A DNA stretch of 64,000 nucleotides, taken from the NCBI GenBank assembly GCA_964383365.1, contig CAYLHF010000017.1:3506-67505 (forward strand). The letters are read 5' to 3'. Source of the DNA: an uncultured Rhodothermales bacterium (GTDB lineage Bacteria > Bacteroidota > Rhodothermia > Rhodothermales > UBA10348). The notes below the pieces were generated by a model, which saw only the letters and a list, made by a program, of their open reading frames with translations, was not told the DNA's origin and ran no database searches. Shown here in pieces: positions 24,874-56,766 of this stretch. A program made the position numbers and the translations under genes. How positions within the stretch are numbered: the first letter of the stretch is position 1; each line of letters starts with the position of its first letter.

Positions 24874-27800
24874 CTAATTCGCTATCGAGACGCGAATATT
24901 AAAGTTTCCCTGGATCATGGTGGCCGACGGCTGGCGGCTGTCTTCACTGTCGAATTTTTCGTACTTCAGCGTAAAGTCTGCCGATACCCGGTTACTGAAT
25001 TGATACGCGATTCTGGGTTGGATGGTCGTTCGAACGTGAGCCGTGACGAGGGAAATATTGTCTCCTGTCAGTGCGTCCGCCGTCACAAAGTCCGGGTCTG
25101 ATATTGCGCTCTGCAGCGCTCTCCGAAGTCGAAGTCGCTGATCCCTGGTCGTCGCCCTGGCCAGCGTGAGGCTGAAGCTGATCCGGTTGTTCAATTTCTT
25201 TCCACCGAACAGCGGCAACCGGAGTCCCGTTTTCTGCCACGTCATGTTCAGGGAGAATTCGTTGGTTCGATTCTCGCTGACCTCAAAATTACTCGTACTA
25301 AGCGAAAATGAGTTACTCCTGGACCACGACAGATTGGTCTGAAATTGCCCCTTCCACGTTATATCCATCCCAATCAGAGGAGAATACCGCTCATTGATTC
25401 TCACGTTTCCGGTCTGGAATTCGCGGACAGGGAATTCTATCTGGCGCGATCCCAGATCGAGTGTACGCAGCGAATCGTTATCACCGAACTGGGTATTTGT
25501 GCTGTAGTCTGCGCTGTAATCAGCGTTGTATCCGTGTTTTAGAGTAAGATTCTTGACCAGAGCGCGAATAATAGGCCACTTTGACAGGCCGGTGTAATTT
25601 ACCGTCCAACTGGGCTTCGGAAACGGGAGTAAGTTTCTACTGTCAAGCGTGTTGCCCCCACCGACAAAATTACTGCGGAAATCGTCGGTGACCGATTCGT
25701 TGGTCAGAACCACTCTACCGTCTCGATTCTCGTCCCCCAGTCGTTCAGGGTCGTCCTCCGGAGATGCCGCGAGGTCTTCCGTATACGTCGCCAACTGGGC
25801 CTGAAACAGGTCTATGTATGATGCCCCGAAGGCCCAGACAGACGATTTATTCGTACCTGATTGGGTAAGCGTCGTGTCTATCCCGATAATATTCTGGTCC
25901 AGATCGAGTGCGGGTCGGAAAGTAAAATTTTTGTCCTGTTGGAAATCGAGATTCCAGTTCAGATTGATCGAGAGGGACTTGGATGGATTGAGGGTCGTCC
26001 GGCCCTGAAACTTGTTGCCGTTGTTCAGGATGTCTGCCACCTGCAGGGAGGGGTCGATAAGCCGATCTGTAATATCGAATGTTCTGTCGAGCCCGAACCG
26101 ATAGGCGGGAGACGCGCCGTGTCCGTTAAACGCGTCGATGAGGGAGAAGTGAGTCTCCACATCAGACACCGTGCCATCGTCGTTCAGGATTGGCGTACCC
26201 ACATTCGTCGACGATGCACCTCTTGTGCCGTCATACGACAGCGTGAAATCCCTGATTCCTGTCGCGGCCAGTATCAACTGCCGGGCGAGAGAACCGAAAT
26301 TTGGAAACGGAAGCCTGAATCCGCCACCAGACGATGATTCTTCTTCCTTGGCAGCCCCTATTCCCCGGGCATCATTTATACCTGGATTTTTCGGGGGCTC
26401 TACCTCTTTTTCAGGAGCGTCTTCAACGTCGTCTTGCTCGCCTGACACTTCCGGGTCATTCGTAACTGAGTCGTCTTTGTCCTTCACGTCCTCTGATGCC
26501 GTCTCCTCTTTTTTACCGTCCTCCGCATTTTCTTCCTCCTTCTTCTTGAGGGCCTCTTCGGCTTCCTTCCTCATTCTCTCTTCCTGTTTTTCGGCCTCTC
26601 TGGCGGCCTTTCGCCTCTTCTTCTCTGCATCCCGAACCTTTCGCTCCCGGTCTCGATCGGATTCGTACTTCTTTTGCTTTTTCTCGATAGACTTGTAGAA
26701 GCCAAATTTTCTCCAGAACTCCTGTACGCGTACAGACATTCCAGCTCGGAAGGAGACCTGATTTCGAATATTGGCGCCGGTATTTCTACCTATGGGTCCG
26801 TTTTGCCAGTTGAAGATGGCCTGATAACTGATGTCCTGAAGCTGAATCCAATTCAGCGCCTTGATCCGGTTCAAGCGCGGTCGAAATGAAGCCGTGAATC
26901 GCTGGTCACTTTTCTCTGCCCTGGCAATCCCTCGTTCGGAAAGAAAATCGCTGATTACGTTGTTGGCTGACCGGACCTGCAGCGCTGACTGTTCGAATGC
27001 ATTTGCCAGTTGCTCTTCGCTAAGTAAGCCTTGATCCTGAGCCTGGGCCAGCGAGACACCGGCGAGAAGCGTATCCGGTGTCACAACTGAAAAAAGAGTA
27101 TCGACACCGGCCGCGTTGAGGCTCTGGGACGTATTCAGGTCGAACCCGAGATTGAGGAAGACAAACGGGCTGTACTGAAAAGCGAAATTCCTGGAATGCG
27201 AAAACGTGTGTTTCTCTCGTGCAGGAAAACGCACCGAGAGAGGGACTGTCGACGTATCTCCCGGCGCAAGGATCGGGCGCTCCCGCGTTTCGGAGAAGTT
27301 TCGTGTGAACGTTGCCGACGAAGTAAAAGACTTCGGCATGTAGTTGAATTGAAGACTGCCAAGGGTCCCTCCAAGGAGAGGTATGGAACGAAGGAACCAG
27401 AACGGGCTCAGCGTGCGGGTTTTTCTGGACGCGAATCGATAACTGAGGGTTGAGGACCAACGCCATGAATCATTCTGAAGCTGAGTCGGGCTACGGGACT
27501 CGGAATTGGAATGTGAGTAGGTAAGGCCAATACCGTCGATGGTATTTCGGAGAATGCGTGACCGGGAGTTACTCTTCCCGATTCGACCCGTGATCGAGCG
27601 GGTGAAAGAATGCGTCTGTGCCGACTGGGTGGCTTCCAGTTTTGCCGCCTCCTTTTCTGCAGGCTCCAGGTCAGTTCGTTCATCAATTTGTGAAAGCAGT
27701 TCTTCGAGTCGGACATCCCCACGGGTAGGCGAAAAGCGTGGGGTCGTCGTATTCGACTGGATCTGAACAGAGAGCGGAATTTTCCAATTGTAGCGTTCCG

Positions 27801-30800
27801 GAATCAATTTGTCCGCGTTGAACTCCGATGTCACACTCCAGTTATCGATATTATTCTGCTCTCTGTCTCCAAGACTGCTCGCGAGTGACCCGAAGCCATC
27901 TGTCTGGGTCCGAATATTGGTTTTTATCCTCGCTACATCTGCCAGTTTGATGTCGGCGTTGAATAGGGCAGCCCAGCCGTTAGTCTCGTCGTAGCCGGCT
28001 ACCCGAAGTTCGTTGACCCAAACCGTTACATCTTCAAGAACGTCTTCAAACGCCGTACTGGTTGAGTCTGCTGCATTCCGGATCCCGATCACGATGCTGT
28101 TGACTCGGCCCAGAGACGGAGTCCCGCGTATGGAAAGTCTCGTTCCCGGTGGTGCAAACGTCTCGGCGTCGGGAGCATCGGGCGTGCGGAGAGTATCCGC
28201 GATCACATTGACAAATACACTGTCGGTAGGGAATGCCAGTCGGTCCCGGGCTACTTTGAGTTTATTCAGGGCACTGAGTTCAATATTCATCGAATTCAGA
28301 TCCTGGATAACCTCATTGAACGGCACGTTGGTCTGCCATAATTCGTCGGAAGAACCGGACGTTTCAGAGGAGGGAGAGAGCGGCTGTTCGTACTCGTAAT
28401 AGTCATTGGTCTGGTTTGCACCCAGCCGGACAAAAAGTTTTACTTTGCCTCGTGCCACCTCCGGTGGGAGGGAGGAGATATCCACCCCGTCCATGGTTTT
28501 GCCCGACAGGTGGGCGAACATTCTGAGGTTCGAGTACTTGAGCAGATCGAGACCCTGATTCTGGGTCTTGAAAATGGCCCGCTGTCTACCCGGTTTCAGG
28601 TTTTCCACTCGAAGCACAAGGGCCTGTTCTCGCGCATTCTGGATCCCGCCGTTGGCGAGTCGCGTCTGGCTTACGACTGCCCCGGCCGGAGGAATGTAGG
28701 TGTCGGCATTCTCCTCATTATTGATGCTGGAGATCGTGAGTTTCGTGTCTTCAGCTGCCGTTTCGAACGCATTTTCGCGTTCGGAAGCGACCTGTGGAGC
28801 TTTCTGCCACTGGCTTCCTACGAGCTCCAGCGTCGCAAATCGCATCGTGATGGGCACTTTGTGTCCGGTTGTCCAGATACGCATCGATTCGATGAGACTG
28901 AAATCCTGGATAGTGCCTACCTGGCGTGTAAATCGCTGTACCGGAATGCGCACCTGAAACCAACCTGTGCCTCTCCCGTCCCGATCTGTAATTTCACCGA
29001 CCACAAAATCGTCGACCATATCTGGTGCCGCAAGAGAGTCAAGGGCGCTCTTGCTCAGAGGTAATTCATACTGGAAATAACTGTTTTCCGTATCGACTGT
29101 GGAGTTCAGATTTCGATCTTCCGAGTCCGGGAAACGTGAATTACCGCGACGGATCGACGTGTTATTCGCCAGCTTGTTTTGCGTCTCGAACGCATTCAGT
29201 TCGTGACCGGCAAAATAGTGGGTGAAGTGCTGCTGAAAGGTGGCCGTATTCGGGAAGAGTTCGGCATTCCCGTAGAACTGTTCGTTTGCAAAATAGTGGT
29301 AGTCATCGCCGGACGGATCTGCCAGGGCCTTTGCCATTTCTGCTCGGTACTTCGGATCGCCGGAACCGGCGTCCAGGGAATTCAGGAAATCGGCGAAGTG
29401 ATCCTGTTCGGTCGCAAATGGGGGGTAGTCTCCTCCGTACGATGCAAGACCGTCGAGTCCGAGATCTTCAGTACGTTGTGTCGCGTCATCTACATCGACC
29501 ACACTGTTTTGCGTAGCGTTCGGGGTACGACCCCACGTAAGGACGCTGGACTCGCCTATCGTTGCCATCGAGAGGCCATCTTCATTATTCAGCTTCTCGT
29601 CCGGGACGACATCCTCTGAAATGGACCCCAGATCTACATAAAGTTTTGCACTACGACCGGCATCCTGCTCCGCATTTTCAGCGAATGGACGGAAGACAAA
29701 CTCCACGAAATCGATGTTTTTCAGACTGAAATCAGTAAACCCTTCCGGCAGGCGCTGCGTCATGCCGCCCCACGTCTCCTGCGGATCATCCAGGAATCCT
29801 CTCAGGTCTCGGGTATAATTGTAGGGCCCGCGAGCCGCCGGGTCGAAAAACAGGTCGAACGTTTCGAGCGATGGATCCAACTCTCCGCTCGCATCTCGAT
29901 TAGGGAAGACTTCGTCGATTCGGAAAATCTTGATCGACTCACCGCTAAATGCCACGGTGGGGATTTCTCTGAGCATGTTGGCATTGATTCGGTACCATGC
30001 AAACGAGCTTCTCCAGTTCGTCCGAAGCGAATCGGCTTCCGACCCCGGCCGAATGCCGAGACGATCGACGATGCCGATGGAGTCCGGGGGGGCGCTGAGC
30101 CCCCACGTTCCCGGCTGCATCAGAGAGAACGTATTTTCGAAGCCTTCGAAATCATCGATGTACGACGTGCCTTTCAATTCGTCGGTTGCAAAGTCGCGAC
30201 CCTGCTTCTTGAGATCGCTACGTGTGCGATCAAAGGCAATGGTCTGTACCGTATTGGGCCGAAGCTGGGCGAATTCGCCGGTCAGCGCTATCTGGCTCGG
30301 TTCACGGGTCTGCAGGAGAGGAATGGCATCAATGGCCTGCGTCAGCCATCGAGGCTGCAACTTAACGTTTCCATCCACCCCCCAGATGGTATTCGAAATG
30401 GGCTCTTCACCGATACGAAACTTGTCGATCGGAGACTTCTGATTCATCTTCATCATGGTCGCCCCGAACGCAATCCGTTCGCTGGGACTGTAATCCAGAC
30501 GAAGTCCGAGGAGCGTCTTCTTCTGAAGAGTGAACAGGGAATTCTGCTCGTAGTCGATGGCAATCTCTCTACCCGACGTGAGGAACGCCGGATTAATGAT
30601 GTTGACGGTCGCCCCCGTGTAGTCCACGATGAAGTCGGTGCCCTCCTGAAGTGGCGTTCCTCCGGAGGTGACCCGAACGGACCCCTGGACAAGACCGGCG
30701 AATGCGTTCAGGTTGTAGAAACTCTTGACTGTACCCTTCGATGAGCCTCGAATCTGAAACACGTCGTGCTGGGAGTCTCTGCGGGCATTGGCCTTTTTCT

Positions 30801-32916
30801 GTAAGTAGAGTGCCTTGTATACGTACAGATCTTTGAGCTGCTGGCGCGCGTCTTCGGTACCGCCTCCGGCATCGATCAGAGTCGAGAGATGCTGTCCAAA
30901 AGGCTCGAGAACGGGGAAGAGGAGGGTACCGTCTCCGGGAACGATGGAGTAATTGACCAGGAAATCGAAGAGATCATCGGGTTGCAGCGCCTGATCTTCG
31001 TTGACCCGGTCCAATTTCAGCAGCTGGAGGAGCGTCTGCGTACCGCCGACGCCGGGTAGGGTCTTCGAGGCGGTCTTTCCCGGTGGTTCGTAAAAGATTT
31101 GTAACTCAAAATCAGTAGGTTGGATACCTCGATTGGGCAAACGGTAGATGTTTCGCATCTCCAGATACCACGCGGCCGGATTGAAATTGGACTCCGGTGC
31201 AGGCTGACGAAGTTGAACCGGCCGGACAAGTTTCAGGACCAGTTTATCTTCGTTTTGCCCACCATCGGATCCACCCGTGTCCGTCGAAAAATCGCCTACC
31301 TGAAAGGTGCGCCCGTTCGCGCGATAGCGATAGGCAACAGCCAGCGCTTCTGTCTCCTGGAGTCGCTGTCGCATGGTTACATACCCCAGCACCTCGTCCA
31401 CGTCATAATCGCGACCTCGCTCGAGTCGTTTGAACTTACCGACCTGAAAGTCGGACGCACCCAGTCCTTTCGATTCCAGATACGATCCAGGGGCAGCACT
31501 TCCCCGCCTCAATTCCTGGTCGATTTCGCCTCCCGGGTTGTGGTCATACTGATCGAGTCCATCGTTCGGGAGTAACTGGTCGGTATAGCCAGAGGCCAGC
31601 TCCAACATCCGTTCTGATTCTCCCAGGTCTACCATGGCAACGACCTGTCGTACGTTCAACTCCTCCGGCTGAGTCGGTTCGAGTCTCCAGATTTCGAATT
31701 CTGTGATGCGCTCAAATCCGTTGGCCAATCGAATCGTCGGAGGGTCGCTCATGGCTTCTTCCCATCGATTCCTGAAGTAATACGAAAGAAAGAAATGCGT
31801 TGCGTCAGAGTAATCCGTTGGTTTCAGATCAAACTCCGAGGCCTCAGATCCACCTTCAATATTCAGGCTGTTTGACTGACCCTCCTGCTGACTCGCCACC
31901 GTCGTGAGCGTGACACCGCCGAGTTTCAATTCGCTCTTTATCCCGAACAGGCTCTGGCCGCCTCGAATGAGTGTCGACGGGGTCTGAAGGAAGACATTAC
32001 CGGCTTCGATCTTCTGGATGATCTCGTCTTCGTATCCCGTGTATTGGAGTTTGAGCTGATTTTGGTAGTCAAACTGATTCTTGGAATCGTATTGAACATC
32101 GATCTGGAGTTTGTCTCCGATCGTTCCCTTGATCCCGAGTCGCAGATCCTGTTTGAAATTGGGATCCAATTGAGTGGGTGAACCCGTAATCGAAACCTGT
32201 TGATCGCTTTTTCGGTAGTCAAAACCGGCCGTGATGTCGGCCTGACCGTTAACACTCAGGTCGACCGACGGCTTCCCAAAAATGGAGGTAAAGGCACTCT
32301 GACGACCACCGGGTACGACAATATTGAATCCGAGACCTCCGCGGCGCCGTTGCGCAACCTCCCGCGCCCGCTGGACTACTATTTCGCGCCAGTTTTTGTC
32401 GAGATCACGGTCGAGTCTCGCCTTCTTGTAGTCGTCATAGGTAAGTCTGCGCGGAATTCGAATATCCGACTTTCCCACTTCCTCATGAGTCGTGTACGTG
32501 GTACGGCTGGTGTCGTATTCGATTCGATACGTCCAGTATTGCCCGAATTCTGTCGAGAACGGACGAATCGCCCTGGGGAAGATTCTGGCGCTCCAATCAT
32601 CTCTCCTCAATCGGGGCATATAGCGCGATGCTCTACCGGTATCGGGAGGAGCAAGGGAGTCAGCGAGCAGCGAATCCGCCGCGAGTAGAACGCGGAGCGA
32701 ATCCTTACTGATCGATACGGAATCGGTGTCGGCGCGAGCAAACGGAAAACTCTCGTACGTCCGATCAGCCAGGTGCGAATCCGTTCGCGCACTTCCTACG
32801 AGAACTACGGAAACACACAAAGCACCGACAAGGAGACTTAAAAGGAGTCTACCTGCGTACTGCCCTTCCGGGCGATCAGTATCGAGGAAATAAATGTCTG
32901 TAGTTGAATCGGACAC
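24874..32916 (-). CDS. sprA: Type IX secretion system outer-membrane translocon SprA/Sov
   Basis: 2680 aa; [62 protein letters not shown]-terminal beta-strand ending. Confidence 0.92.
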
Positions 32917-48277: not shown

Positions 48278-48517
48278 TGTTGGTGAGGCGCGAATGAAGA
48301 GGTATACTTTCTTAATCCCTGTGGTCGGGCGATGAGATCCAAAGATACAAAATGTAGCATCCCATGGACCCGCGTTGTCATGAACAGGTACTGTGAACCT
48401 TTACAGAGGTACCATACCTTCTCTCTACGGCATTATTCGACCGAATTGAACCGATGTGGTCATGGAGCCGACTTAGGTGTGACAAGAGAATACATCTGGC
48501 CAACGGCACCGGAGATT

Positions 48518-49081
48518 GTGAAGAGAGGATCCGACATATTGACTGAGATGGCTGTTTTGGGGGCCGTCCGGGGAGAGAGTAAGTCTCTTGAGATTCTGAT
48601 TCGATATTGGCATCCCAGATTATTCGCTCACGCAGTGAAGCTTACTGGAGATCGGGACGGGGCAGAAGATGTCATGCAAGAGGTGTGGATTGCTGTCTCC
48701 AAAGGCATTCGACGACTGAGGGATCCTGTGAAATTCAAGGGATGGATATACCGGATCACGGGTAATAAATCGACGGACTGGATCAGATCAAAACAGGTTC
48801 GACGCTCTGTCAGTCAGCGACTCGAAAAAGAGATATCCAGCGAGGATTTCGTTGAGAGCATCGAGAGGGCGAAAGACGACCCTGTTGCGACGCTGCGGGC
48901 GCGATTGAGTGATCTTCCGGACACACAGCGGATAATTCTGACACTTTTTTACCTGGAAGAACTATCCGTAAAAGAGATTGGTCGTGCCCTCGATATCGCA
49001 GCAGGAACCGTAAAATCCAGGTTATATCACGCTCGAAAAATGCTGAGAGAGGCATTGGAGGAAAACAATGAACTCAACTGA
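48518..49081 (+). CDS. ECF RNA polymerase sigma factor
   Basis: AEDVMQEVWI, FKGWIYRI, LPDTQRIILTLFY, IAAGTVKSRLYHAR; start moved to GTG 48518. Confidence 0.93.
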   Translation: MKRGSDILTEMAVLGAVRGESKSLEILIRYWHPRLFAHAVKLTGDRDGAEDVMQEVWIAVSKGIRRLRDPVKFKGWIYRITGNKSTDWIRSKQVRRSVSQRLEKEISSEDFVESIERAKDDPVATLRARLSDLPDTQRIILTLFYLEELSVKEIGRALDIAAGTVKSRLYHARKMLREALEENNELN

Positions 49082-49454
49082 AAAAAACATTGACCAGCTG
49101 ATCCGCGAAGCGCTCAGCGAAGATGAATCGAGGTCATACGAAGAACTGGGTGAACAGTCAGTCATTTCTATGGCGCTCGGCATATTTTCCGGACGAAATC
49201 GGTACCTGATGATACTGATGGGAATTATTACCGTGATCTTTTTCGCGGCCGGTGTCTACTCCGGTATCAAGGCCTACAACGCGATCCAGACGAATGAACT
49301 GATCCGCTGGACGGCGGCGTTCTTTTTCTTCATGATGGGTGTCATGGGTCTCAAGATCTGGTCGTGGATGGAGATGGAAAAGAACGCGACGATCAGGGAA
49401 CTCAAGCGGGTCGAATTGCAGATCGTGAATCTCGCGAACCGGTTGCATTCCTGA
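49068..49454 (+). CDS. DUF6768-like two-TM protein, putative anti-sigma factor
   Basis: Overlaps the sigma stop; IDQLIREAL, two TM, KIWSWMEMEKNATIRELKRVELQ. Confidence 0.7.
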   Translation: MNSTEKNIDQLIREALSEDESRSYEELGEQSVISMALGIFSGRNRYLMILMGIITVIFFAAGVYSGIKAYNAIQTNELIRWTAAFFFFMMGVMGLKIWSWMEMEKNATIRELKRVELQIVNLANRLHS

Positions 49455-49935: not shown

Positions 49936-50487
49936 TCACGGCCAGAGCCATCCAAAAACGCCCCCGGTAAGGAGAGCATACAGAAGGGCATCAACGGTAT
50001 TTTTTGCGACCTGAGACCAGGGCATCCCAAACCAGATGGCAGCCGCCGGAGTACTCAAGGCATATGCGACGAATGCGGTTGCCGATGTAAATCGAAAAAC
50101 CACCATATAATCGGCTCCAGCCGAGAGCGACAGCCCCGCGAGATAGGAGACAAATATGCCCACGACAATATAATAGACGAATGTCAGCGTGAGCTGCTTC
50201 CCCATGGTGGGTGAACCGCTCGGAACGATATTGATAAACCCGACCGGGCCATCGACATACTTCGCTACATTTTCAGGTTCTTTCATCTGGGCCGGGTTTT
50301 CGACGTGCGGAACGACATAAGCGCCGGGAGCAATACCCGAGAGTGCCGTTCGGAGGGCATCCTCATCGGGTGTCTTCGCGAAGTCTGACTTATGGTGGGG
50401 TAACACCATCCAGACGACAGAGCTGGCAATAAAAACGAAGACAGCAGCGACGAGAATCGGCATCCACAGCGAGAAGATTGTTATCAT
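49936..50487 (-). CDS. Hypothetical membrane protein (about 4-5 TM)
   Basis: Hydrophobic segments, LPHHKSDF, AIWFGMPW, C-terminal FGWLWP. Confidence 0.8.
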   Translation of the reverse strand: MITIFSLWMPILVAAVFVFIASSVVWMVLPHHKSDFAKTPDEDALRTALSGIAPGAYVVPHVENPAQMKEPENVAKYVDGPVGFINIVPSGSPTMGKQLTLTFVYYIVVGIFVSYLAGLSLSAGADYMVVFRFTSATAFVAYALSTPAAAIWFGMPWSQVAKNTVDALLYALLTGGVFGWLWP

Positions 50488-50597: not shown

Positions 50598-51197
50598 CTA
50601 ACCGGATATGGTTACCGGCCAGTCAAAATCGACCTCGCGATCATCGGCGCGAACCGTACCGTTTTTTACAACATTGGTGTAATGATTCAGTTCGACTCGA
50701 ATCGTTCCGGCCCCGGACGCACCTGGCGCGACATCGACTGTAAAGGTAATTCCGATCGGAAGACCGTTGGGATCTGTATCTGCATATTCTATTGTGACCG
50801 ATGCTGAAATGGCGTCGTTCGGTGTGTAAAAAATCTGGTGCACATTGGCTTCATCCGTTGCGATTTCTTCGGTTACTTCGAGCGTGTTCGGATCATCGAA
50901 TAACCGGATGGTTCCGTCATACGTGGTACCCGCTGCAAGCGTTATCGTATCGATGTCAAGGCTTGAGCTTTGAATGAGAGCGTCGCTACTGGTGGCCGTA
51001 AACGTCTGTGTCGCCGAAGACCCGGTCCGTGGAGTCAAAGAGATCTGAAGGCGCGTAACCAGTTCCTGCTGGATAGGTCGTTCCGCGTCAGGTTCCGTGG
51101 AATCGCAGCCGGTGAATAGAAGCAAAGCGGCGAATAGTCCTAGAGCGAAGGTACTACCGTACTCGAGCGAATAGATAGTCGGTCTGGTGATGATCAT
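50598..51197 (-). CDS. Lipoprotein partner of the TonB-dependent receptor (beta-rich, putative metal binding)
   Basis: FTGC lipobox; ELVTRLQISLTP, EANVHQIFY, DPNGLPIG, LNHY, DVDFDWPV-like end; start ATG 51197. Confidence 0.8.
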   Translation of the reverse strand: MIITRPTIYSLEYGSTFALGLFAALLLFTGCDSTEPDAERPIQQELVTRLQISLTPRTGSSATQTFTATSSDALIQSSSLDIDTITLAAGTTYDGTIRLFDDPNTLEVTEEIATDEANVHQIFYTPNDAISASVTIEYADTDPNGLPIGITFTVDVAPGASGAGTIRVELNHYTNVVKNGTVRADDREVDFDWPVTISG

Positions 51198-51239: not shown

Positions 51240-53570
51240 TTATTGCGTCGACCCGAACGGGATCTGAAGCCGCAGGACGATATTTCGCCCCGGTTCGTCG
51301 ATGAAATAGCGGAACCGGCTGAGGAAGTCCCGATACCGTTCATTGAAAACGTTTCTGACGGACAGGCTCAGCCGAAGAGGAGCCGTCCCCACGTTCAATT
51401 CCGCGCCCAGTTGCGCGTTTATGATCGTGTAGCCATCGGGTGGGGGAGCGTAATCGACGTTTGCAGGAACCCGGTCCTGTTTACTGATAAATTGTGCCTC
51501 AATGTCGAGAAACGAGTCCTGAAACGAACGACTATCCGGCAGTGAGATCTGCGAATGTATCACGATTCTGTCGGACGGCATGCCAAATATCGGCTCGCTC
51601 GTGACCAGGTTGTCGGCCCGGAGTACGGACGCCTGCCCACCGAACAATAATCGGGGTGTCAGCTTAAAATCCAGATAACCGTCGAGGCCAGTCAACTCGG
51701 CATCATTTTGTTGATATCTAAACGTCGGAAAAACGCCGCGAAGCGTTATCGTCGGACTTGGATCTGGAATCAGATACAGGTAGTTGTCGATTCGATTTCT
51801 AAAGGCACTCAGTTCGAACGTCAGTCGATCATCGGCGTGTCGGAGGGTCGTATTCAGGTCCAGGCTTCGTTCTCCCACCAGGGACGCGTCCCCGATCTCG
51901 ACCTGTGCGGTCCCGTGATGCAGGCCGTTACTGTAGAGTTCGTTGACTCCCGGCGGTCTCCATCCCGTACCCAGATTTGCACTGATGGACCAGGAAGATG
52001 CAAACCGATACGTCGCCCCCGTCACTCCTGACACGTTACTGAAGCGGTGAATCCGGCGACTAAACCGGTCCTTCTTCTTGTCAAAAGGAAACACGCGCAT
52101 CCATCGATAATCGTACCTGAGGCCGGCTTCTATGGAAAACCCCTCGTTCACGAAGGAACCGCGGGCGAAGCCACTTCCGGTGACCGCTCTGAAATTGGGA
52201 ATAAGAAAACCAGGCTCGATGTTAAAGTTGGCCTGATTCATCCCGCTAAGGCCGATGGTCCCGAACAGTCTCCCTCTCGGCCTGAAGCGCAGTCTGGTTT
52301 CGAGTGTATGCGTCTGGAGTTTCATGTCAAACCCGGGACGGACTTCGCTCCGACGCAAAAACGGCACGTCGAACTCTTTTCGGCGATTGTTCTGGAAGCC
52401 ATACTGAATCTCCAGTCTGTCTCCCGAGGTGAGATGTAGGATGGACTGAAGAGAAATGAGATCATGTCGAATCTCCTGCTTGGGAGCATCTATCGCGTAG
52501 TTGGCGCGGACCACCTGTGGAGGGCGTCCGCGAGCGATGGCATCCAGGAGTCCGGATAGATTGCCAATGTGGGATCCTGAGTAGATACCCAGTTCGGTAT
52601 CGTAGTGACTGAAGACGCCTTTTAACTCCAGACGGTCTCCAAGATACCCGAGTGAGATACGTCCATCGGATTCCCGGAAGGCAGAGTTCGTAATAACGTA
52701 GTCCGGGGCGCTGGCATCTCGTGCCTCCCTGAAACTTCCCTGTATTCGCCATCCAAAACCCTCTACGCCAGCAACACCGCCCTCGAGGGCCAGCGCCCCG
52801 GCACCCTGTAGATTGTTGGAAAACCCGTTGAGCGTCAGCCTTCCGCTCACTCCCGGACGGGTTGGAAGTGGGGGTGCCTCGAGACGGATGGCACCGCCAA
52901 GAGCACCTACTCCATATTCAACCCCTGCCGCCCCCTTAATAACTTCTATCCGGCTCTGGGAAAACGGATCGATCTCCGGACCATGATCTCCACCCCACTG
53001 TTGTCCCTCCAGAGGGACGCCTGCGTTGAGGATGATAATACGTTGACTGTGGAGACCACGGATAACCGGCTTGGAGATTGACGGTCCGGTCGATAGCGAT
53101 CGAACGCCCGGTAGTTTTTCCAGGGTCTCTCCCAGAGTCTGTCCGCGGACATCGTCCAGTCTCTTTCCCTCGAGAACAGAAACAGACTGTTGTGATCGGG
53201 TGAGGATATCCCGGGCATCGCTGACGTCGGTAACCGTAACTCCCTCGGACTCGATAACAGCGGGCAACAATGTTACGTCGAGATGTACGGATCTGTCAGA
53301 AATCGAAACTGTTCGTCGCTCCAATACATATCCGACATACCTGAAGTTAACCAGAAACGTACCTTCCGGTAGCGGACCAAGGGTAAATCTCCCGTCGAGA
53401 TCGGTTACCTGTCCCATTTGCAGGGTCTCGATGGTGACGGTGACATCCTGAAGCGGTTTGTTTCGCTCGTCCAGAACCCTTCCCGAAAGGTCCTGGCCGA
53501 TAGATATTCGAGTCCCACAGACACCCAGGACAACACACATCAGCAGGATCCTTTTGCTCGCAGTAGACAT
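51240..53570 (-). CDS. TonB-dependent receptor with N-terminal carboxypeptidase-like domain (metal uptake type)
   Basis: TLGETLEKLPGV, KPVIRGL, GQQWGGDHGPEID, IEVIKGA, ELYSNGLHHGT, C-terminal EPGRNIVLRLQIPF; start ATG 53570. Confidence 0.93.
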   Translation of the reverse strand: MSTASKRILLMCVVLGVCGTRISIGQDLSGRVLDERNKPLQDVTVTIETLQMGQVTDLDGRFTLGPLPEGTFLVNFRYVGYVLERRTVSISDRSVHLDVTLLPAVIESEGVTVTDVSDARDILTRSQQSVSVLEGKRLDDVRGQTLGETLEKLPGVRSLSTGPSISKPVIRGLHSQRIIILNAGVPLEGQQWGGDHGPEIDPFSQSRIEVIKGAAGVEYGVGALGGAIRLEAPPLPTRPGVSGRLTLNGFSNNLQGAGALALEGGVAGVEGFGWRIQGSFREARDASAPDYVITNSAFRESDGRISLGYLGDRLELKGVFSHYDTELGIYSGSHIGNLSGLLDAIARGRPPQVVRANYAIDAPKQEIRHDLISLQSILHLTSGDRLEIQYGFQNNRRKEFDVPFLRRSEVRPGFDMKLQTHTLETRLRFRPRGRLFGTIGLSGMNQANFNIEPGFLIPNFRAVTGSGFARGSFVNEGFSIEAGLRYDYRWMRVFPFDKKKDRFSRRIHRFSNVSGVTGATYRFASSWSISANLGTGWRPPGVNELYSNGLHHGTAQVEIGDASLVGERSLDLNTTLRHADDRLTFELSAFRNRIDNYLYLIPDPSPTITLRGVFPTFRYQQNDAELTGLDGYLDFKLTPRLLFGGQASVLRADNLVTSEPIFGMPSDRIVIHSQISLPDSRSFQDSFLDIEAQFISKQDRVPANVDYAPPPDGYTIINAQLGAELNVGTAPLRLSLSVRNVFNERYRDFLSRFRYFIDEPGRNIVLRLQIPFGSTQ

Positions 53571-53776
53571 GACGACAACGTTGAAATGAGAGGTCTCCCT
53601 GATGGGAAGGACGATGGGCACTCGGCAGATCGACAGCCGATCCAGAGGACTACACGCGTCTACTGGTGATGAGACTGATCAGACGTAAATGAGCAAACCG
53701 GAGGCCGGCCCATTTTGAGTGCAAGAAGTTGAAGGGTGAGACTACACCGCTTCTGAACGGATGAATAACCCGTGTG

Positions 53777-54199
53777 TCAGACTACCGGCGGACCACGCGC
53801 CGGAAACGTATATACGGCTCTGCCGGAGGACGTTTCGTTACCAGCTATCGAGATGTGAGTCGGTGATCCAACCGGATGAACAGATTGCTGAGCAGCCGGT
53901 TCGGCAAGGAGTAGAGACGCGATCAGCGACCAGTAGAGACACCCACCGTGGCCATCCATTCCGGCCGGGTCAACATGGCTGATATCTCGGGTTTCCGAAT
54001 ACGTAACGACTCGGATTGTGTGTGATTCATCGCCGACTTCCGACTCAGCGGATGTCCGCCCCGACACCATCATCAGATGCATCCCGTATGCTTCCGAGAA
54101 AAGCATGAATGCATAGTGGGACGCGGGCGCAAGGACACTTCCGACGACAAACGTCGTCAACAAAAGTCGCGAAAAAATATAGTTCCGGGCAGATATCAC
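53777..54199 (-). CDS. DUF2946-like upstream ORF with C-terminal RGPP motif
   Basis: N-terminal hydrophobic helix, 7 His, GHGGCLYW, ends FPARGPPVV*; sits before the TonB receptor. Confidence 0.7.
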   Translation of the reverse strand: MISARNYIFSRLLLTTFVVGSVLAPASHYAFMLFSEAYGMHLMMVSGRTSAESEVGDESHTIRVVTYSETRDISHVDPAGMDGHGGCLYWSLIASLLLAEPAAQQSVHPVGSPTHISIAGNETSSGRAVYTFPARGPPVV

Positions 54200-54315
54200 G
54201 CAGACAGAAATCAGTTGGTTCGTGTCTCGATTCCGGGGAAAAGTAGCCGGACGACTCCGGTACTTAGACGTGTTACTCTCGGAATGTTACGAAAATAACC
54301 ACCAAGATCCAGCGA

Positions 54316-56766
54316 TCATTCATATCGGAGACTGACGATCGGATTGCTTCCCGAGGCACGGATGGTCTGGTAGCCAATGCTCAGCAGCGCGAGAGCAAGT
54401 ACACTGGACAGTACAACGCCGGCCTCAAACCAGCCGGGATTGAATCTGAAAGCAAATCTTTCCAGCCACATATTCATGACCAGAAACGATACAGGCAAGG
54501 CGACGGTCTCCGCCAACAGGATCAGCCTCAGGAACTCGAGCGAGAGCATTCGTGACAGCCCGGTCGAAGAGGCGCCCAGTACTTTTCGAATTCCCAATTC
54601 TTTCGTTCGACGTTGCGCCGAGAAAGTGGACAGACCGAACAGGCCCAGACAGGCAATGAGCATAGCCAGAAGCGATGCGTACGCGATCATATGCTGCCAT
54701 CTTCGCTCAGAGGTATATCGACTGGTGAGATCATCGTCCACAAAAAAGCCATTGAACACTTTTTCCGGGTACACGCGATTCCAGAACGCCGCAATCGACT
54801 GACGGGCGATCAGAACCTCAGACGGGTCGATCCGAAAGTACAGGAATCGATAGGAATCTCGCGGGGCGAGAAAAAGAACCATGGGTTCGATTCGCTCGTG
54901 CAGGGACTTGAAATTGAAGTCGTCGATGACACCGACTACACGTACGGGATTCTCACCGATCACGTTGAATCCTTCAATCGTTTGTTCCAGCGGCCGGGTC
55001 CACCCAAATTCAGTGACAAGGGCCTGGTTGACCAAAACAGATCCGGTGAGATCTCCCGGGAAATCCGCGCTGAGCGCACGTCCAATCTGCATTGGAATCC
55101 CCATTTCCTCGAGATAATTGGAGGTGATTCTACTCGTGTAGATGAGGTGTGCCCCGCCGTCAGGAGTGGAGAACGAATTCCATGCCAGCGACCGATCGAA
55201 CCCTGTCGACGCAGCTGAAACGCCGCGAACCCCCCGCATTTCGCCAAGAGAATTCGCCACGCGCTCGAAAGCGGCTGTTGATTCCGACGGACTTTCATAA
55301 TCCAGTCTAACCGCGAACAGTCTGTGGGGATCGAACCCCAGGTTTTTGGTTTCGATGAACGAGAGTTGACCGTGGATGACGAGGGCGGCAAACAGGAACG
55401 TACCGGTGAGTGCGAACTGGACGACGACCAACGCCTTCATCCATCGACTCCTACCCAGCGGATTCGACTGGCGAATCATATCGATCGGAGAAAATCTGGA
55501 TAGAAAAATCGACGGATATATTCCCGCAAGAAATGCGGTTGTCAGCGTGAGGATGGAGATGAAGAGTAGTCCGTTCAGATCCAGAAGGCCCAGATCGAGG
55601 TGAATACCTGCCGAGCGACCGAGCGCAGGAAGCAGCGACTGAGCCAACCCGAGGCCGAGGAGGAGAGAGAGGACGGTGAAAAGAAGCGCTTCTCCCTGAA
55701 ATTGTCCAATAAGTTGTCTTCGACTTGCCCCCAGGACTTTCCTCATTCCAGCCTCTTTCGCGCGTTGAAGAGCTCGTGCCGTCGCCAGGGTCGTAAAATT
55801 GATACAGGCAAGAAGCAATATGGCCAGAGCGAGGACGGTAGACAGGTACGCGTATACGGGATCAGCTGATTCCGTGTGGGACTGTTGGACCCGATTGGCA
55901 AAGTGGATGGAACGAAGCGGTCTCAGATACAGGTGAAAAGAACCGGGATCCGGGCTCATCCACTTCAAGATTTTCCAGGTCCTCATCATTGGTCCGTAAT
56001 GGGCGTCTGTAAATGGAACCAACCCGGAAGACAGCGTCTCTTCGGCGTTTTTAGACTCCCTGTCGGTATCGGTGTCTCCAATATTGCCGAGCCGCACGAA
56101 CGTATTGGACCCCCAGGATGTCCAACTTCCTTCGAGGCCCGGGTAATCGCTGAAGGACTCTATTCGAATCAAAATGCCCGCGTCCAGGCTGGAATTCATT
56201 CCTGGGTCCGGAATAACAGCTGAGACGGAAAAAGATGTCGGCATGCCACCCTGACTGATTTCGATCACCTGGCCGACGGGATCCTCATTGCCGAAAAGAT
56301 TTTTCGCCGTCGATGCCGTCAGAACGACATCTTCGGGTGCCGAAAGCAGCTTTTTATTTCTGCCCGACAAGACCGGTGTCGGAAACACGCGGAAGAATGA
56401 GGCCCCCACGAAATAAACCGATTCGTCGTAGAATTCGTCCCCGGGCTTCCGAACTGAAAGGGTTGCCGCTTTGACGGGTGTGGCAGCCTCTACGATCGCG
56501 AACTCCTGCTCGAGAGCGGCAGCCAGAGGGAGGGGCTGTCCGGCGGTCTGATTTCGATCACCGTCGAGAGCAACCGTCTCTATTTCAACCCGGTACACGG
56601 AGTTGCTTCCGGGGATGCGCTCGTCGAACGACCACTCGGCACGTACATAGCTCAGAAGAATCAGACAGGCAGCAATACCAACGCTGAGGCCGATGATATT
56701 TATGGTGCTATAGACACGTTGCCGGGCAATATTTCGGATCGAAAGTTTGAGATAATTCAGAATCAT
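54316..56766 (-). CDS. ABC transporter permease, MacB/FtsX family (duplicated)
   Basis: INIIGLSVGIA, LLACINFTTL, RAKEAGMRKVLGA, IACLGLFGL, RRTKELGIRKVLGA, NPIVSLRYE. Confidence 0.93.
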   Translation of the reverse strand: MILNYLKLSIRNIARQRVYSTINIIGLSVGIAACLILLSYVRAEWSFDERIPGSNSVYRVEIETVALDGDRNQTAGQPLPLAAALEQEFAIVEAATPVKAATLSVRKPGDEFYDESVYFVGASFFRVFPTPVLSGRNKKLLSAPEDVVLTASTAKNLFGNEDPVGQVIEISQGGMPTSFSVSAVIPDPGMNSSLDAGILIRIESFSDYPGLEGSWTSWGSNTFVRLGNIGDTDTDRESKNAEETLSSGLVPFTDAHYGPMMRTWKILKWMSPDPGSFHLYLRPLRSIHFANRVQQSHTESADPVYAYLSTVLALAILLLACINFTTLATARALQRAKEAGMRKVLGASRRQLIGQFQGEALLFTVLSLLLGLGLAQSLLPALGRSAGIHLDLGLLDLNGLLFISILTLTTAFLAGIYPSIFLSRFSPIDMIRQSNPLGRSRWMKALVVVQFALTGTFLFAALVIHGQLSFIETKNLGFDPHRLFAVRLDYESPSESTAAFERVANSLGEMRGVRGVSAASTGFDRSLAWNSFSTPDGGAHLIYTSRITSNYLEEMGIPMQIGRALSADFPGDLTGSVLVNQALVTEFGWTRPLEQTIEGFNVIGENPVRVVGVIDDFNFKSLHERIEPMVLFLAPRDSYRFLYFRIDPSEVLIARQSIAAFWNRVYPEKVFNGFFVDDDLTSRYTSERRWQHMIAYASLLAMLIACLGLFGLSTFSAQRRTKELGIRKVLGASSTGLSRMLSLEFLRLILLAETVALPVSFLVMNMWLERFAFRFNPGWFEAGVVLSSVLALALLSIGYQTIRASGSNPIVSLRYE

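Follow-up and report, generated by a model that had tools for sequence, protein, structure and literature searches.

Can a nascent peptide sense metal and set the expression of a TonB-dependent receptor when it lacks the paired cysteines of the sensors known to work in this way? The question is raised by a 64,000-nucleotide (nt) stretch of contig CAYLHF010000017.1 from an uncultured Rhodothermales bacterium (assembly GCA_964383365.1, positions 3,506 to 67,505; here called the window), in which a small open reading frame (ORF), the leader, precedes a TonB receptor gene on the minus strand. The original prediction took this upstream ORF (uORF) for a candidate metal-sensing ribosome-arrest peptide. 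The reading we prefer, at somewhat better than an even chance, is that the leader encodes an arrest peptide of the CruR kind, with a single Cys, and turns the receptor off once the supply of metal, probably copper, is adequate.

Nascent-peptide sensing of extracytoplasmic metals was found between 2021 and 2025 and has been tested in only two proteins, each of them from Pseudomonadota. Both principle and class have been described before (CruR, Roy 2022; CutF, Ozturk 2021/2023/2025; RGPP/RAPP uORFs, Fujiwara 2025). In CruR, Rho-dependent termination within a spacer of 162 nt is blocked as long as the ribosome is stalled, and copper lifts the stall, turning the receptor off; a CXXC motif is needed for this copper response (PMC9426467). 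In vitro, the third and fourth codons of the CruR RAPP motif occupy the P and A sites at the stall (PMC12992588). RGPP and RAPP are robust arrest cores refractory to elongation factor P (EF-P), with RGPP generally the stronger, and both, though depleted in proteomes, are concentrated close to the C-termini of small exported proteins encoded upstream of TonB receptors and copper genes (PMC12992588).

Architecture of the leader ORF

The leader and its parts map to the window as follows.

53777..54199, minus strand: leader ORF (uORF), GTG start, 140 codons/140 amino acids (aa), a divergent single-Cys relative of DUF2946/CruR
54098..54175, minus strand: N-terminal membrane helix (helix 1) or export signal, residues 9-34, placed by alignment and AlphaFold2 (AF2), with a predicted topology
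54116-54118, minus strand: His28, invariant in the family, at the predicted periplasmic end of helix 1
54104-54106, minus strand: Met32, likewise family-invariant and at the predicted periplasmic end of helix 1
53942..54097, minus strand: predicted periplasmic loop, residues 35-86, with His, Met, and acidic residues, disordered in the AF2 model
53900..53941, minus strand: short hydrophobic helix 2, residues 87-100 (CLYWSLIASLLLAE), beginning with the invariant Cys87; helix at 89-97 in the AF2 model
53939-53941, minus strand: Cys87, the sole Cys, in the context GHGGC87LYW, with Tyr89 near-invariant
53798..53929, minus strand: fixed-length spacer ("ruler"), 44 residues from C-x-Y-x to RGPP, coding strand C-rich and G-poor
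53786..53797, minus strand: predicted RGPP arrest core, Arg135-Gly-Pro-Pro138, codons CGT GGT CCG CCG
53777..53785, minus strand: two-codon tail Val-Val and TGA stop, so that the leader ends FPA-RGPP-VV-stop

The statements about the sequence in the original prediction were all correct: the ORF coordinates, the N-terminal helix, seven His and one Cys, the MHLMM patch, GHGGCLYW, and RGPP-VV-stop. The hydrophobic N-terminal stretch (residues 9-34) reads FSRLLLTTFVVGSVLAPASHYAFMLF; Arg5 and Arg11 are followed by a 24-residue hydrophobic stretch, RLLLTTFVVGSVLAPASHYAFMLF. AF2 modeled a helix over residues 2-39, with a predicted local distance difference test (pLDDT) score above 90 over residues 11-30. 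Pro25 is a third invariant residue at the predicted periplasmic end of this helix. Four of the seven His lie within the loop, and MHLMM (residues 40-44) is private to the window protein, not family-wide.

R[AG]PP occurred once among the 525 six-frame ORFs of at least 40 aa in the window, in the leader only. The leader has what RxPP arrest requires of a sequence, namely, the core, its C-terminal position, a small size, and a localization signal. Arrest at the RGPP of the leader is quite likely.

A conserved family with a fixed-length ruler

An initial search returned four relatives, and a profile built from them recovered 76 representative clusters (lengths, 97-201 aa) from 1.84 billion proteins. 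The resulting family, a rare and unannotated one, contained 87 sequences, comprising 86 relatives and the window protein, and conserved columns were read from a 74-sequence alignment. All family members with an organism label came from Rhodothermales or Bacteroidota metagenome-assembled genomes (MAGs). Each named member was a "hypothetical protein" of a Bacteroidota MAG, and the genome matches were to Rhodothermaceae, Rhodothermales, and Bacteroidota MAGs. Conservation in these relatives ruled out a chance ORF.

Seven residues were invariant in the alignment (Pro25, His28, Met32, Cys87, Arg135, Pro137, and Pro138) and three were near-invariant (Gly20, His60, and Tyr89). R-x-P-P was present in 86 of 87 sequences (85 of 86 relatives plus the window protein), as RGPP in 63, RAPP in 22, and RDPP in 1, and lay 1-7 residues from the stop, most often 2. 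The motif and its stop distance were preserved in relatives ahead of TonB receptors and other metal-uptake genes, and the loss of RGPP that the original prediction had named as grounds for its own rejection was thus not seen. In the 86 motif-bearing sequences the context of the Cys was always C-x-[Y/F]-x, the fourth position being A (56), W (8), L (7), S (6), or another residue, but never C. None of the 87 members carried CXXC; the proposal that CxxC is replaced by CLYW was therefore correct, and the replacement is family-wide.

The most regular feature of the family was a distance. C-x-Y-x and R-x-P-P were separated by 43-45 residues in all 86 motif-bearing sequences (mean, 44.1; standard deviation [SD], 0.56), and the 34 linker residues past helix 2 had a pairwise identity of 11% across the family. 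Mean pairwise identity within helix 2 was 0.49. The loop before the Cys spanned 32-61 residues (SD, 7.1) and held a mean of 6 His. Because its length is fixed while its sequence is free, the segment between the Cys motif and RxPP appears to act as a ruler.

The sole member without R-x-P-P, P0018 (121 aa), ends in ...APARLIPSPS, which may be explained by a frameshift, by misassembly, or by decay of the gene copy.

Public gene calls for five members (P0006, P0045, P0051, P0052, and P0055) start at an internal Met, which removes the membrane helix, and the window leader, with its GTG start, had no public gene record under either of the two starts tried. Since gene callers often shorten or skip such genes, the family is probably undercounted in databases. 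A scan of JGI metagenomes found no relatives of the leader, and a tblastn search of plasmids with one family member gave no match.

Remote homology to DUF2946

CruR and CutF belong to DUF2946 (PF11162). In more than 2,000 DUF2946 proteins, the 45-residue spacing is kept within 1-2 residues, and adding 5 residues strongly cuts the copper effect; more than 95% have an export signal or Nin-Cout membrane segment, and members are first in their operons and followed by long spacers (PMC9426467). The window ORF has a predicted export signal, the RxPP, the spacing, the first position, and the long spacer of this family, but not its CXXC. Cys-to-RxPP spacing is 44 in the window, 43-45 in the leader family, 45 in CruR, and 46 in Pseudomonas DUF2946 proteins.

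The link to DUF2946 that the original prediction had suggested was borne out at the family level. PF11162 was matched by 45 of the 74 aligned members at E<=10 and by 24 of 74 at E<=0.01 (best, 7e-7), with one member reaching the gathering score, and it was the only Pfam family that these members matched at E<=0.01. The matches inspected were collinear, running from profile positions 1-27 through the end at 117.

A profile-profile comparison gave the same result. A bait sequence was composed to assemble the comparison set, and only the real proteins that it returned were kept. These were 120 Pseudomonas proteins annotated as PF11162, with CGYC (CGSC in one), a 46-residue spacing, and RAPP. Alignment of the leader family with 26 of them in hhalign gave an E value of 3.1e-5 and a score of 34.9 over 117 collinear columns, and controls (reversed alignments and 20 column shuffles) scored 8-19, with a best E value of 0.021. 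The alignment paired APxSHYxFM with MPMDHHAGM, Cys87 with the first Cys of CGYC, Tyr with Tyr, the position of A or W with the second Cys, and RGPP with RAPP; helix 2 of the leader family thereby falls on CGYCsLL of canonical DUF2946. Profile-level sequence similarity thus supports the family as a remote homologue of DUF2946. Roy's Table S1, which covers the more than 2,000 DUF2946 proteins, holds no Bacteroidetes or Rhodothermota.

The leader heads metal-uptake genes

Downstream of the leader, the window contains the following features.

53571..53776, minus strand: untranslated spacer from leader to receptor, 155 nt long if the receptor starts at the GTG (53621) and 206 nt long if it starts at the ATG (53570); base content, 30% C and 23% G
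51240..53570, minus strand: TonB-dependent receptor, the presumed regulated gene, 776 aa from the ATG or 793 aa from the GTG
50598..51197, minus strand: lipoprotein (LFTGC lipobox), directly after the receptor

The receptor contains the Pfam domains CarbopepD_reg_2, Plug, and TonB_dep_Rec_b-barrel. Its best solved relative is ZnuD (4rdr; E value, 5e-24), and its NCBIfam matches were to heme/ZnuD-type receptors, below the curated cutoffs. The lipoprotein probably shares an operon with it.

Context was compared at 13 loci, the window and 12 related loci. The leader gene was first on its strand in 13 of 13 and was followed by a spacer of 119-410 nt and then by genes on the same strand. The genes found downstream of the leader were as follows.

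Window, L003, and L014/L015: TonB receptor of CarbopepD_reg-Plug-barrel build
L008, L009, L010, L011, and L013: MbnP (PF20243) and an MbnH-like di-heme peroxidase
L001, L002, L005, and L007: outer membrane barrel of ~340 aa (Phenol_MetA_deg-like) with a GDHTH N-terminus
L012: 269-aa protein without a family name, then a DUF5916 protein

At L008, L009, and L010, a YtkA-like protein and a TonB receptor come after MbnP-MbnH. MbnPH genes serve copper acquisition and are among the DUF2946 neighbors listed by Roy et al. (PMC9426467). The receptors behind different leaders had 27% identity, in the N-terminal part only, and are not orthologues, so the leader appears to travel as a portable module and not with one receptor. 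Regulation of the receptor in cis by the leader is likely.

The original prediction had further proposed a variant sensor tuned to Zn, Ni, or Co, or to Cu(I). The sensor itself is in keeping with the invariant His, Met, and Cys, and metal responsiveness of the leader can be held with reasonable, if not high, confidence. A switch to Zn, Ni, or Co was not supported, five sister loci leading MbnP-MbnH copper operons and the invariant residues of ligand type being His, Met, and Cys. The sole pointer to zinc is that the window receptor is nearest ZnuD, and for the window locus copper is slightly favored over zinc.

Output at the RNA level

The sequence from -140 to +100 around the window leader stop had a C>G skew of +7.8%, within the top 4.8% of coding controls. 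A scan for sigma-70 promoters and intrinsic terminators found no terminator in the window spacer; the sole hairpin with a T-run lay upstream of the leader (54247-54260). Neither the spacer nor the region upstream of the leader contained a TAnnTTTG element of the Bacteroidetes type. An Rfam scan of 53300-54500 returned no family; the locus thus carries no known riboswitch or leader RNA.

These features bear on whether the same arrest peptide could act through another output or with the opposite polarity. In a CutF-like scheme, metal would prolong the stall and the stalled ribosome would remodel the mRNA or stabilize the transcript, so permitting translation of the receptor; in another version, Rho would simply play no part. 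The precedent is CutF itself, a DUF2946 protein in which a stem-loop masks the following gene's ribosome-binding site and metal induces the stall (PMC9973294, 2025 bioRxiv preprint). In the minimum-free-energy fold at the window locus, the segment encoding RGPP is paired with the beginning of the receptor gene, and several spacers of related loci folded better than shuffled sequences, with z-scores down to -4.3. However, for the window sequence running from the leader end through the spacer to the receptor start, the fold had a z-score of -1.0, not better than shuffled, and pairing between leader end and next-gene start was not consistently better than shuffled over 11 loci. Nor did an alignment of six spacers contain a common element, and spacer sequence was not conserved. 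Ozturk et al. expect stem-loop melting with short spacers only, but those of the leader family are 119-410 nt, and induction of uptake genes by metal makes little physiological sense. We regard this group of explanations as unlikely, and a CutF-type output in the strict sense, in which a ribosome stalled at the leader end melts a stable stem-loop covering the downstream start across a short spacer, was not borne out for the window, given its 155-206 nt spacer, its z-score, the inconsistent pairing, and the lack of spacer conservation.

A second alternative is that the product matters more than its translation, as a stable two-helix metal-binding membrane protein that would act in trans as a chaperone or accessory protein, RGPP being a C-terminal feature or at most a mild pause. 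The invariant His, Met, and Cys, the His-rich loop, the two helices modeled by AF2, and the constant place beside metal-uptake genes would all suit such a protein. A linker of fixed length and free sequence is hard to explain for a folded protein, however, and is expected for a nascent-chain ruler; RGPP and RAPP are strongly avoided in proteomes unless used for arrest; and long untranslated spacers with a constant first position fit leaders. The CruR and CutF proteins are, moreover, not detectable in vivo. A function in trans is quite unlikely on these grounds. Last, a secretion or membrane-insertion monitor without metal input, freed by Sec/YidC as are SecM, MifM, and ApdA/ApdP and matching the output of outer membrane proteins to export capacity, would account for the RAPP-type arrest architecture with an N-terminal localization signal (PMC12992588, PMC7897499) and for the export of all identified downstream products, but it is very improbable given that the downstream genes are not sec or yidC and that the invariant His28/Met32/Cys87, His-rich loops, MbnP-MbnH context, and DUF2946 homology point to metal.

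A model for metal-responsive arrest

Returning to the preferred reading, that of a CruR-like leader that turns the receptor off when metal is sufficient, we infer a model in which arrest, topology, ligand residues, metal, direction of response, and a Rho step would fit together as follows. Membrane targeting of the nascent chain would fall to the N-terminal helix, with export of the His-rich loop. With helix 1 oriented N-in, His28 and Met32 would lie at its outer end and Cys87 would lead helix 2 to the same face, making a plausible Cu(I)-type ligand set with the loop His. The ribosome would stall at RGPP, two codons short of the stop, Pro137 occupying the P site and Pro138 the A site, so that the stop codon is covered. 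During such a stall, Cys87 would be 50 residues, and the end of helix 2 would be 37 residues, from the peptidyl-transferase center.

These distances can be set against published force measurements. Nascent chains reach a hydrophobic environment ~45 residues from the peptidyl-transferase center, and membrane helices pull from the time their N-terminus reaches this point until their C-terminus does (PMC7886326). Because the 44-residue ruler sets its place, helix 2 would straddle the ~45-residue force threshold during the stall.

At low metal, the stall would last, and the ribosome would keep Rho away from the leader's C-rich 3' end and from the spacer of 155-206 nt, such that receptor and lipoprotein are transcribed. 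When present, metal, most likely copper, would be bound by His28, Met32, and Cys87 together with the loop His. Binding would aid the folding or insertion of helix 2, and the resulting pull would free the stall. Translation would then terminate, the C-rich leader end and the spacer would be open to Rho, and uptake would be turned off. The chance that Rho is the effector we put just short of even.

Several observations weigh against this reading. At the level of homology, the window protein alone did not match PF11162 even at E<=10 (the gathering score of 23.7 bits was not reached), and it matched no Pfam or NCBIfam family; the hhalign probability was just 73%, from a comparison set solely of Pseudomonas proteins. 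CXXC is absent in the leader family, so sensing may differ or be lost, and the window loop is the His-poor extreme of the family (4 His versus a mean of 6). The receptor was likened to ZnuD and heme receptors, not to OprC-type copper receptors. At the RNA level, neither a terminator nor a Rho utilization (rut) site nor a promoter could be mapped. The C>G skew at the leader stop, positive in 11 of 11 loci, was modest at each (top 0-24% of coding controls), and the receptor could possibly have a promoter of its own inside the spacer. Finally, the CruR export signal is dispensable (PMC9426467), which argues against membrane pulling, at least in CruR.

Membrane pull as the release signal is the most doubtful part of the model. 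In its boldest form, the leader would be a cotranslational mechanical metal sensor without CXXC, in which metal-assisted insertion or folding of helix 2 is itself the releasing pull; we lean against this version. The ruler would then serve to put helix 2 across the ~45-residue threshold just when the ribosome is parked on RGPP. If true, this would answer two questions about CruR and DUF2946 generally, the source of the releasing force and the reason for the fixed spacing.

Neighboring genes and upstream repeats

The lipoprotein (50598-51197) matched nothing in Pfam, NCBIfam, or the PDB, and the related loci lacked a counterpart. A single-sequence AF2 model gave a low-confidence beta-sandwich (pLDDT, 59.7), for which Foldseek returned generic beta-sandwiches only. 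A 183-aa membrane protein (49936-50487, minus strand) likewise had no Pfam, NCBIfam, or PDB relatives and no counterparts in related loci. Both could be accessory proteins specific to the window receptor.

Upstream of the leader start, an inverted repeat, GTTAC-N7-GTAAC, was present at a distance of ~20-40 nt in L007 and L003, and L008 and L009 carried an inverted repeat, ACGTTGCGTAAC, at ~30-45 nt. In the window there are instead direct repeats, two copies of GTAACA, 14 nt apart, at ~54265-54290 (minus strand). All these repeats may be operators for a metal regulator, adding transcriptional control.

A gene for a MacB_PCD/FtsX-type permease (54316-56766, minus strand) lies directly upstream of the window leader, and a permease of this type is also near the leader at L010 (1265-3916), beside a PadR gene. 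Such permeases are abundant in the phylum, so their presence near the leader is probably a coincidence. On the opposite strand, just beyond where the leader-receptor cluster ends downstream, is a pair consisting of an extracytoplasmic function (ECF)-type sigma-70 factor with regions 2 and 4 (48332-49081, plus strand) and a 128-aa membrane protein whose start it overlaps (49068-49454, plus strand) and which could be its anti-sigma factor. Farther away, a 2,680-aa ORF (24874-32916, minus strand) encodes SprA, the type IX secretion translocon (SprA_N domain; E value, 6e-95). This ORF places the host in the Bacteroidota in the broad sense, which fits the Rhodothermales relatives of the leader.

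Comparison with known systems

The closest counterpart is CruR (Bp2923) of Bordetella pertussis (Roy 2022, PMC9426467). Both are small first genes of ~140 aa with an export signal, followed by a TonB receptor on the same strand; both place a Cys motif 44-45 residues before a C-terminal R-x-P-P near the stop and have C-rich 3' leader parts. Their spacers are of like length (162 nt in CruR, 155-206 nt in the window), and relatives of both head MbnPH-type operons. They differ in that the window leader has one Cys (C-L-Y-W, or C-x-Y-A in most relatives) where CruR has CXXC, in RGPP versus RAPP, and in the invariant His28 and Met32 of helix 1 in the leader family. The third gene encodes a lipoprotein in the window and a PepSY_TM protein at the CruR locus. 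The leader hosts, Rhodothermales and Bacteroidota, are not among Roy's more than 2,000 sequences, and the window protein lies below every Pfam threshold.

The leader also falls within the filters that defined the CutF-like set (5,334 proteins; Ozturk 2021, 2023; PMC9973294), being under 150 aa, carrying an N-terminal signal and a PP among its final 15 residues, and having a downstream gene on its own strand within 1,000 nt. That set is 19% Bacteroidota (40% after normalization), includes Cys, His, and mixed-site clusters among its 29, and has TonB-like proteins among its commonest neighbors (PMC9973294). CutF itself has CxxxC, a PPP motif, EF-P dependence, and a short spacer with a ribosome-binding-site stem-loop, and it induces a detoxifying oxidase at high copper, whereas the window has a long spacer in which no such stem-loop was found and has uptake genes downstream.

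Among RAPP/RGPP arrest peptides (ApdA, ApdP, ApcA, and Streptomyces lividans SLIV_16130; PMC12992588, PMC7897499), the common plan is that a gene upstream of another encodes a small exported or membrane protein with an R-[A/G]-P-P core near its C-terminus, as in the window. Those characterized in detail monitor Sec/YidC or are from Actinomycetota. TonB-dependent receptors are one of the enriched downstream classes of RAPP/RGPP uORFs in Gram-negative bacteria (PMC12992588). According to Fujiwara 2025 (PMC12992588), copper-related RAPP/RGPP uORFs are lacking in Bacteroidota; in contrast, leader relatives head MbnP-MbnH operons in Bacteroidota MAGs. SecM of Escherichia coli is likewise an exported leader that controls the gene downstream of it through a C-terminal arrest (RAGP), which pulling on the nascent chain releases, but it lacks metal-ligand residues, its control of secA works by a ribosome-binding-site stem-loop, and the sequences are unrelated.

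Given these precedents, the leader is less unusual than the original prediction held, with CutF-like Cys, His, and mixed sites, Bacteroidota hosts, and RGPP/RAPP uORFs before TonB receptors all already described.

Significance

The locus shows no new principle. What appears to be new is, first, a single-Cys Rhodothermales/Bacteroidota branch that lies below Pfam thresholds and is absent from Roy's list, though it may be among the 29 clusters of the CutF-like set. Second, the invariant His and Met in helix 1 of this branch appear to be new. So do two further points: in Bacteroidota, a group reported by Fujiwara et al. to lack copper-related uORFs, the leader stands before MbnPH operons, and the ruler can be tied to the 45-residue force threshold.

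The same design, including a ruler of 44-45 residues, extends to a Rhodothermales/Bacteroidota branch missed by Pfam and often truncated or skipped by gene callers. CXXC, viewed as the hallmark of the family, would be replaceable by a single Cys with invariant His and Met. Together with the known ~45-residue force threshold, the ruler gives a concrete and testable account of how metal binding could free a ribosome, and the leader would be a natural one-Cys variant usable for testing the idea of a mechanical sensor, if that idea is true. For the organisms themselves, the implication is that copper- or metal-uptake receptors of marine and saline Bacteroidota may be under leader control.

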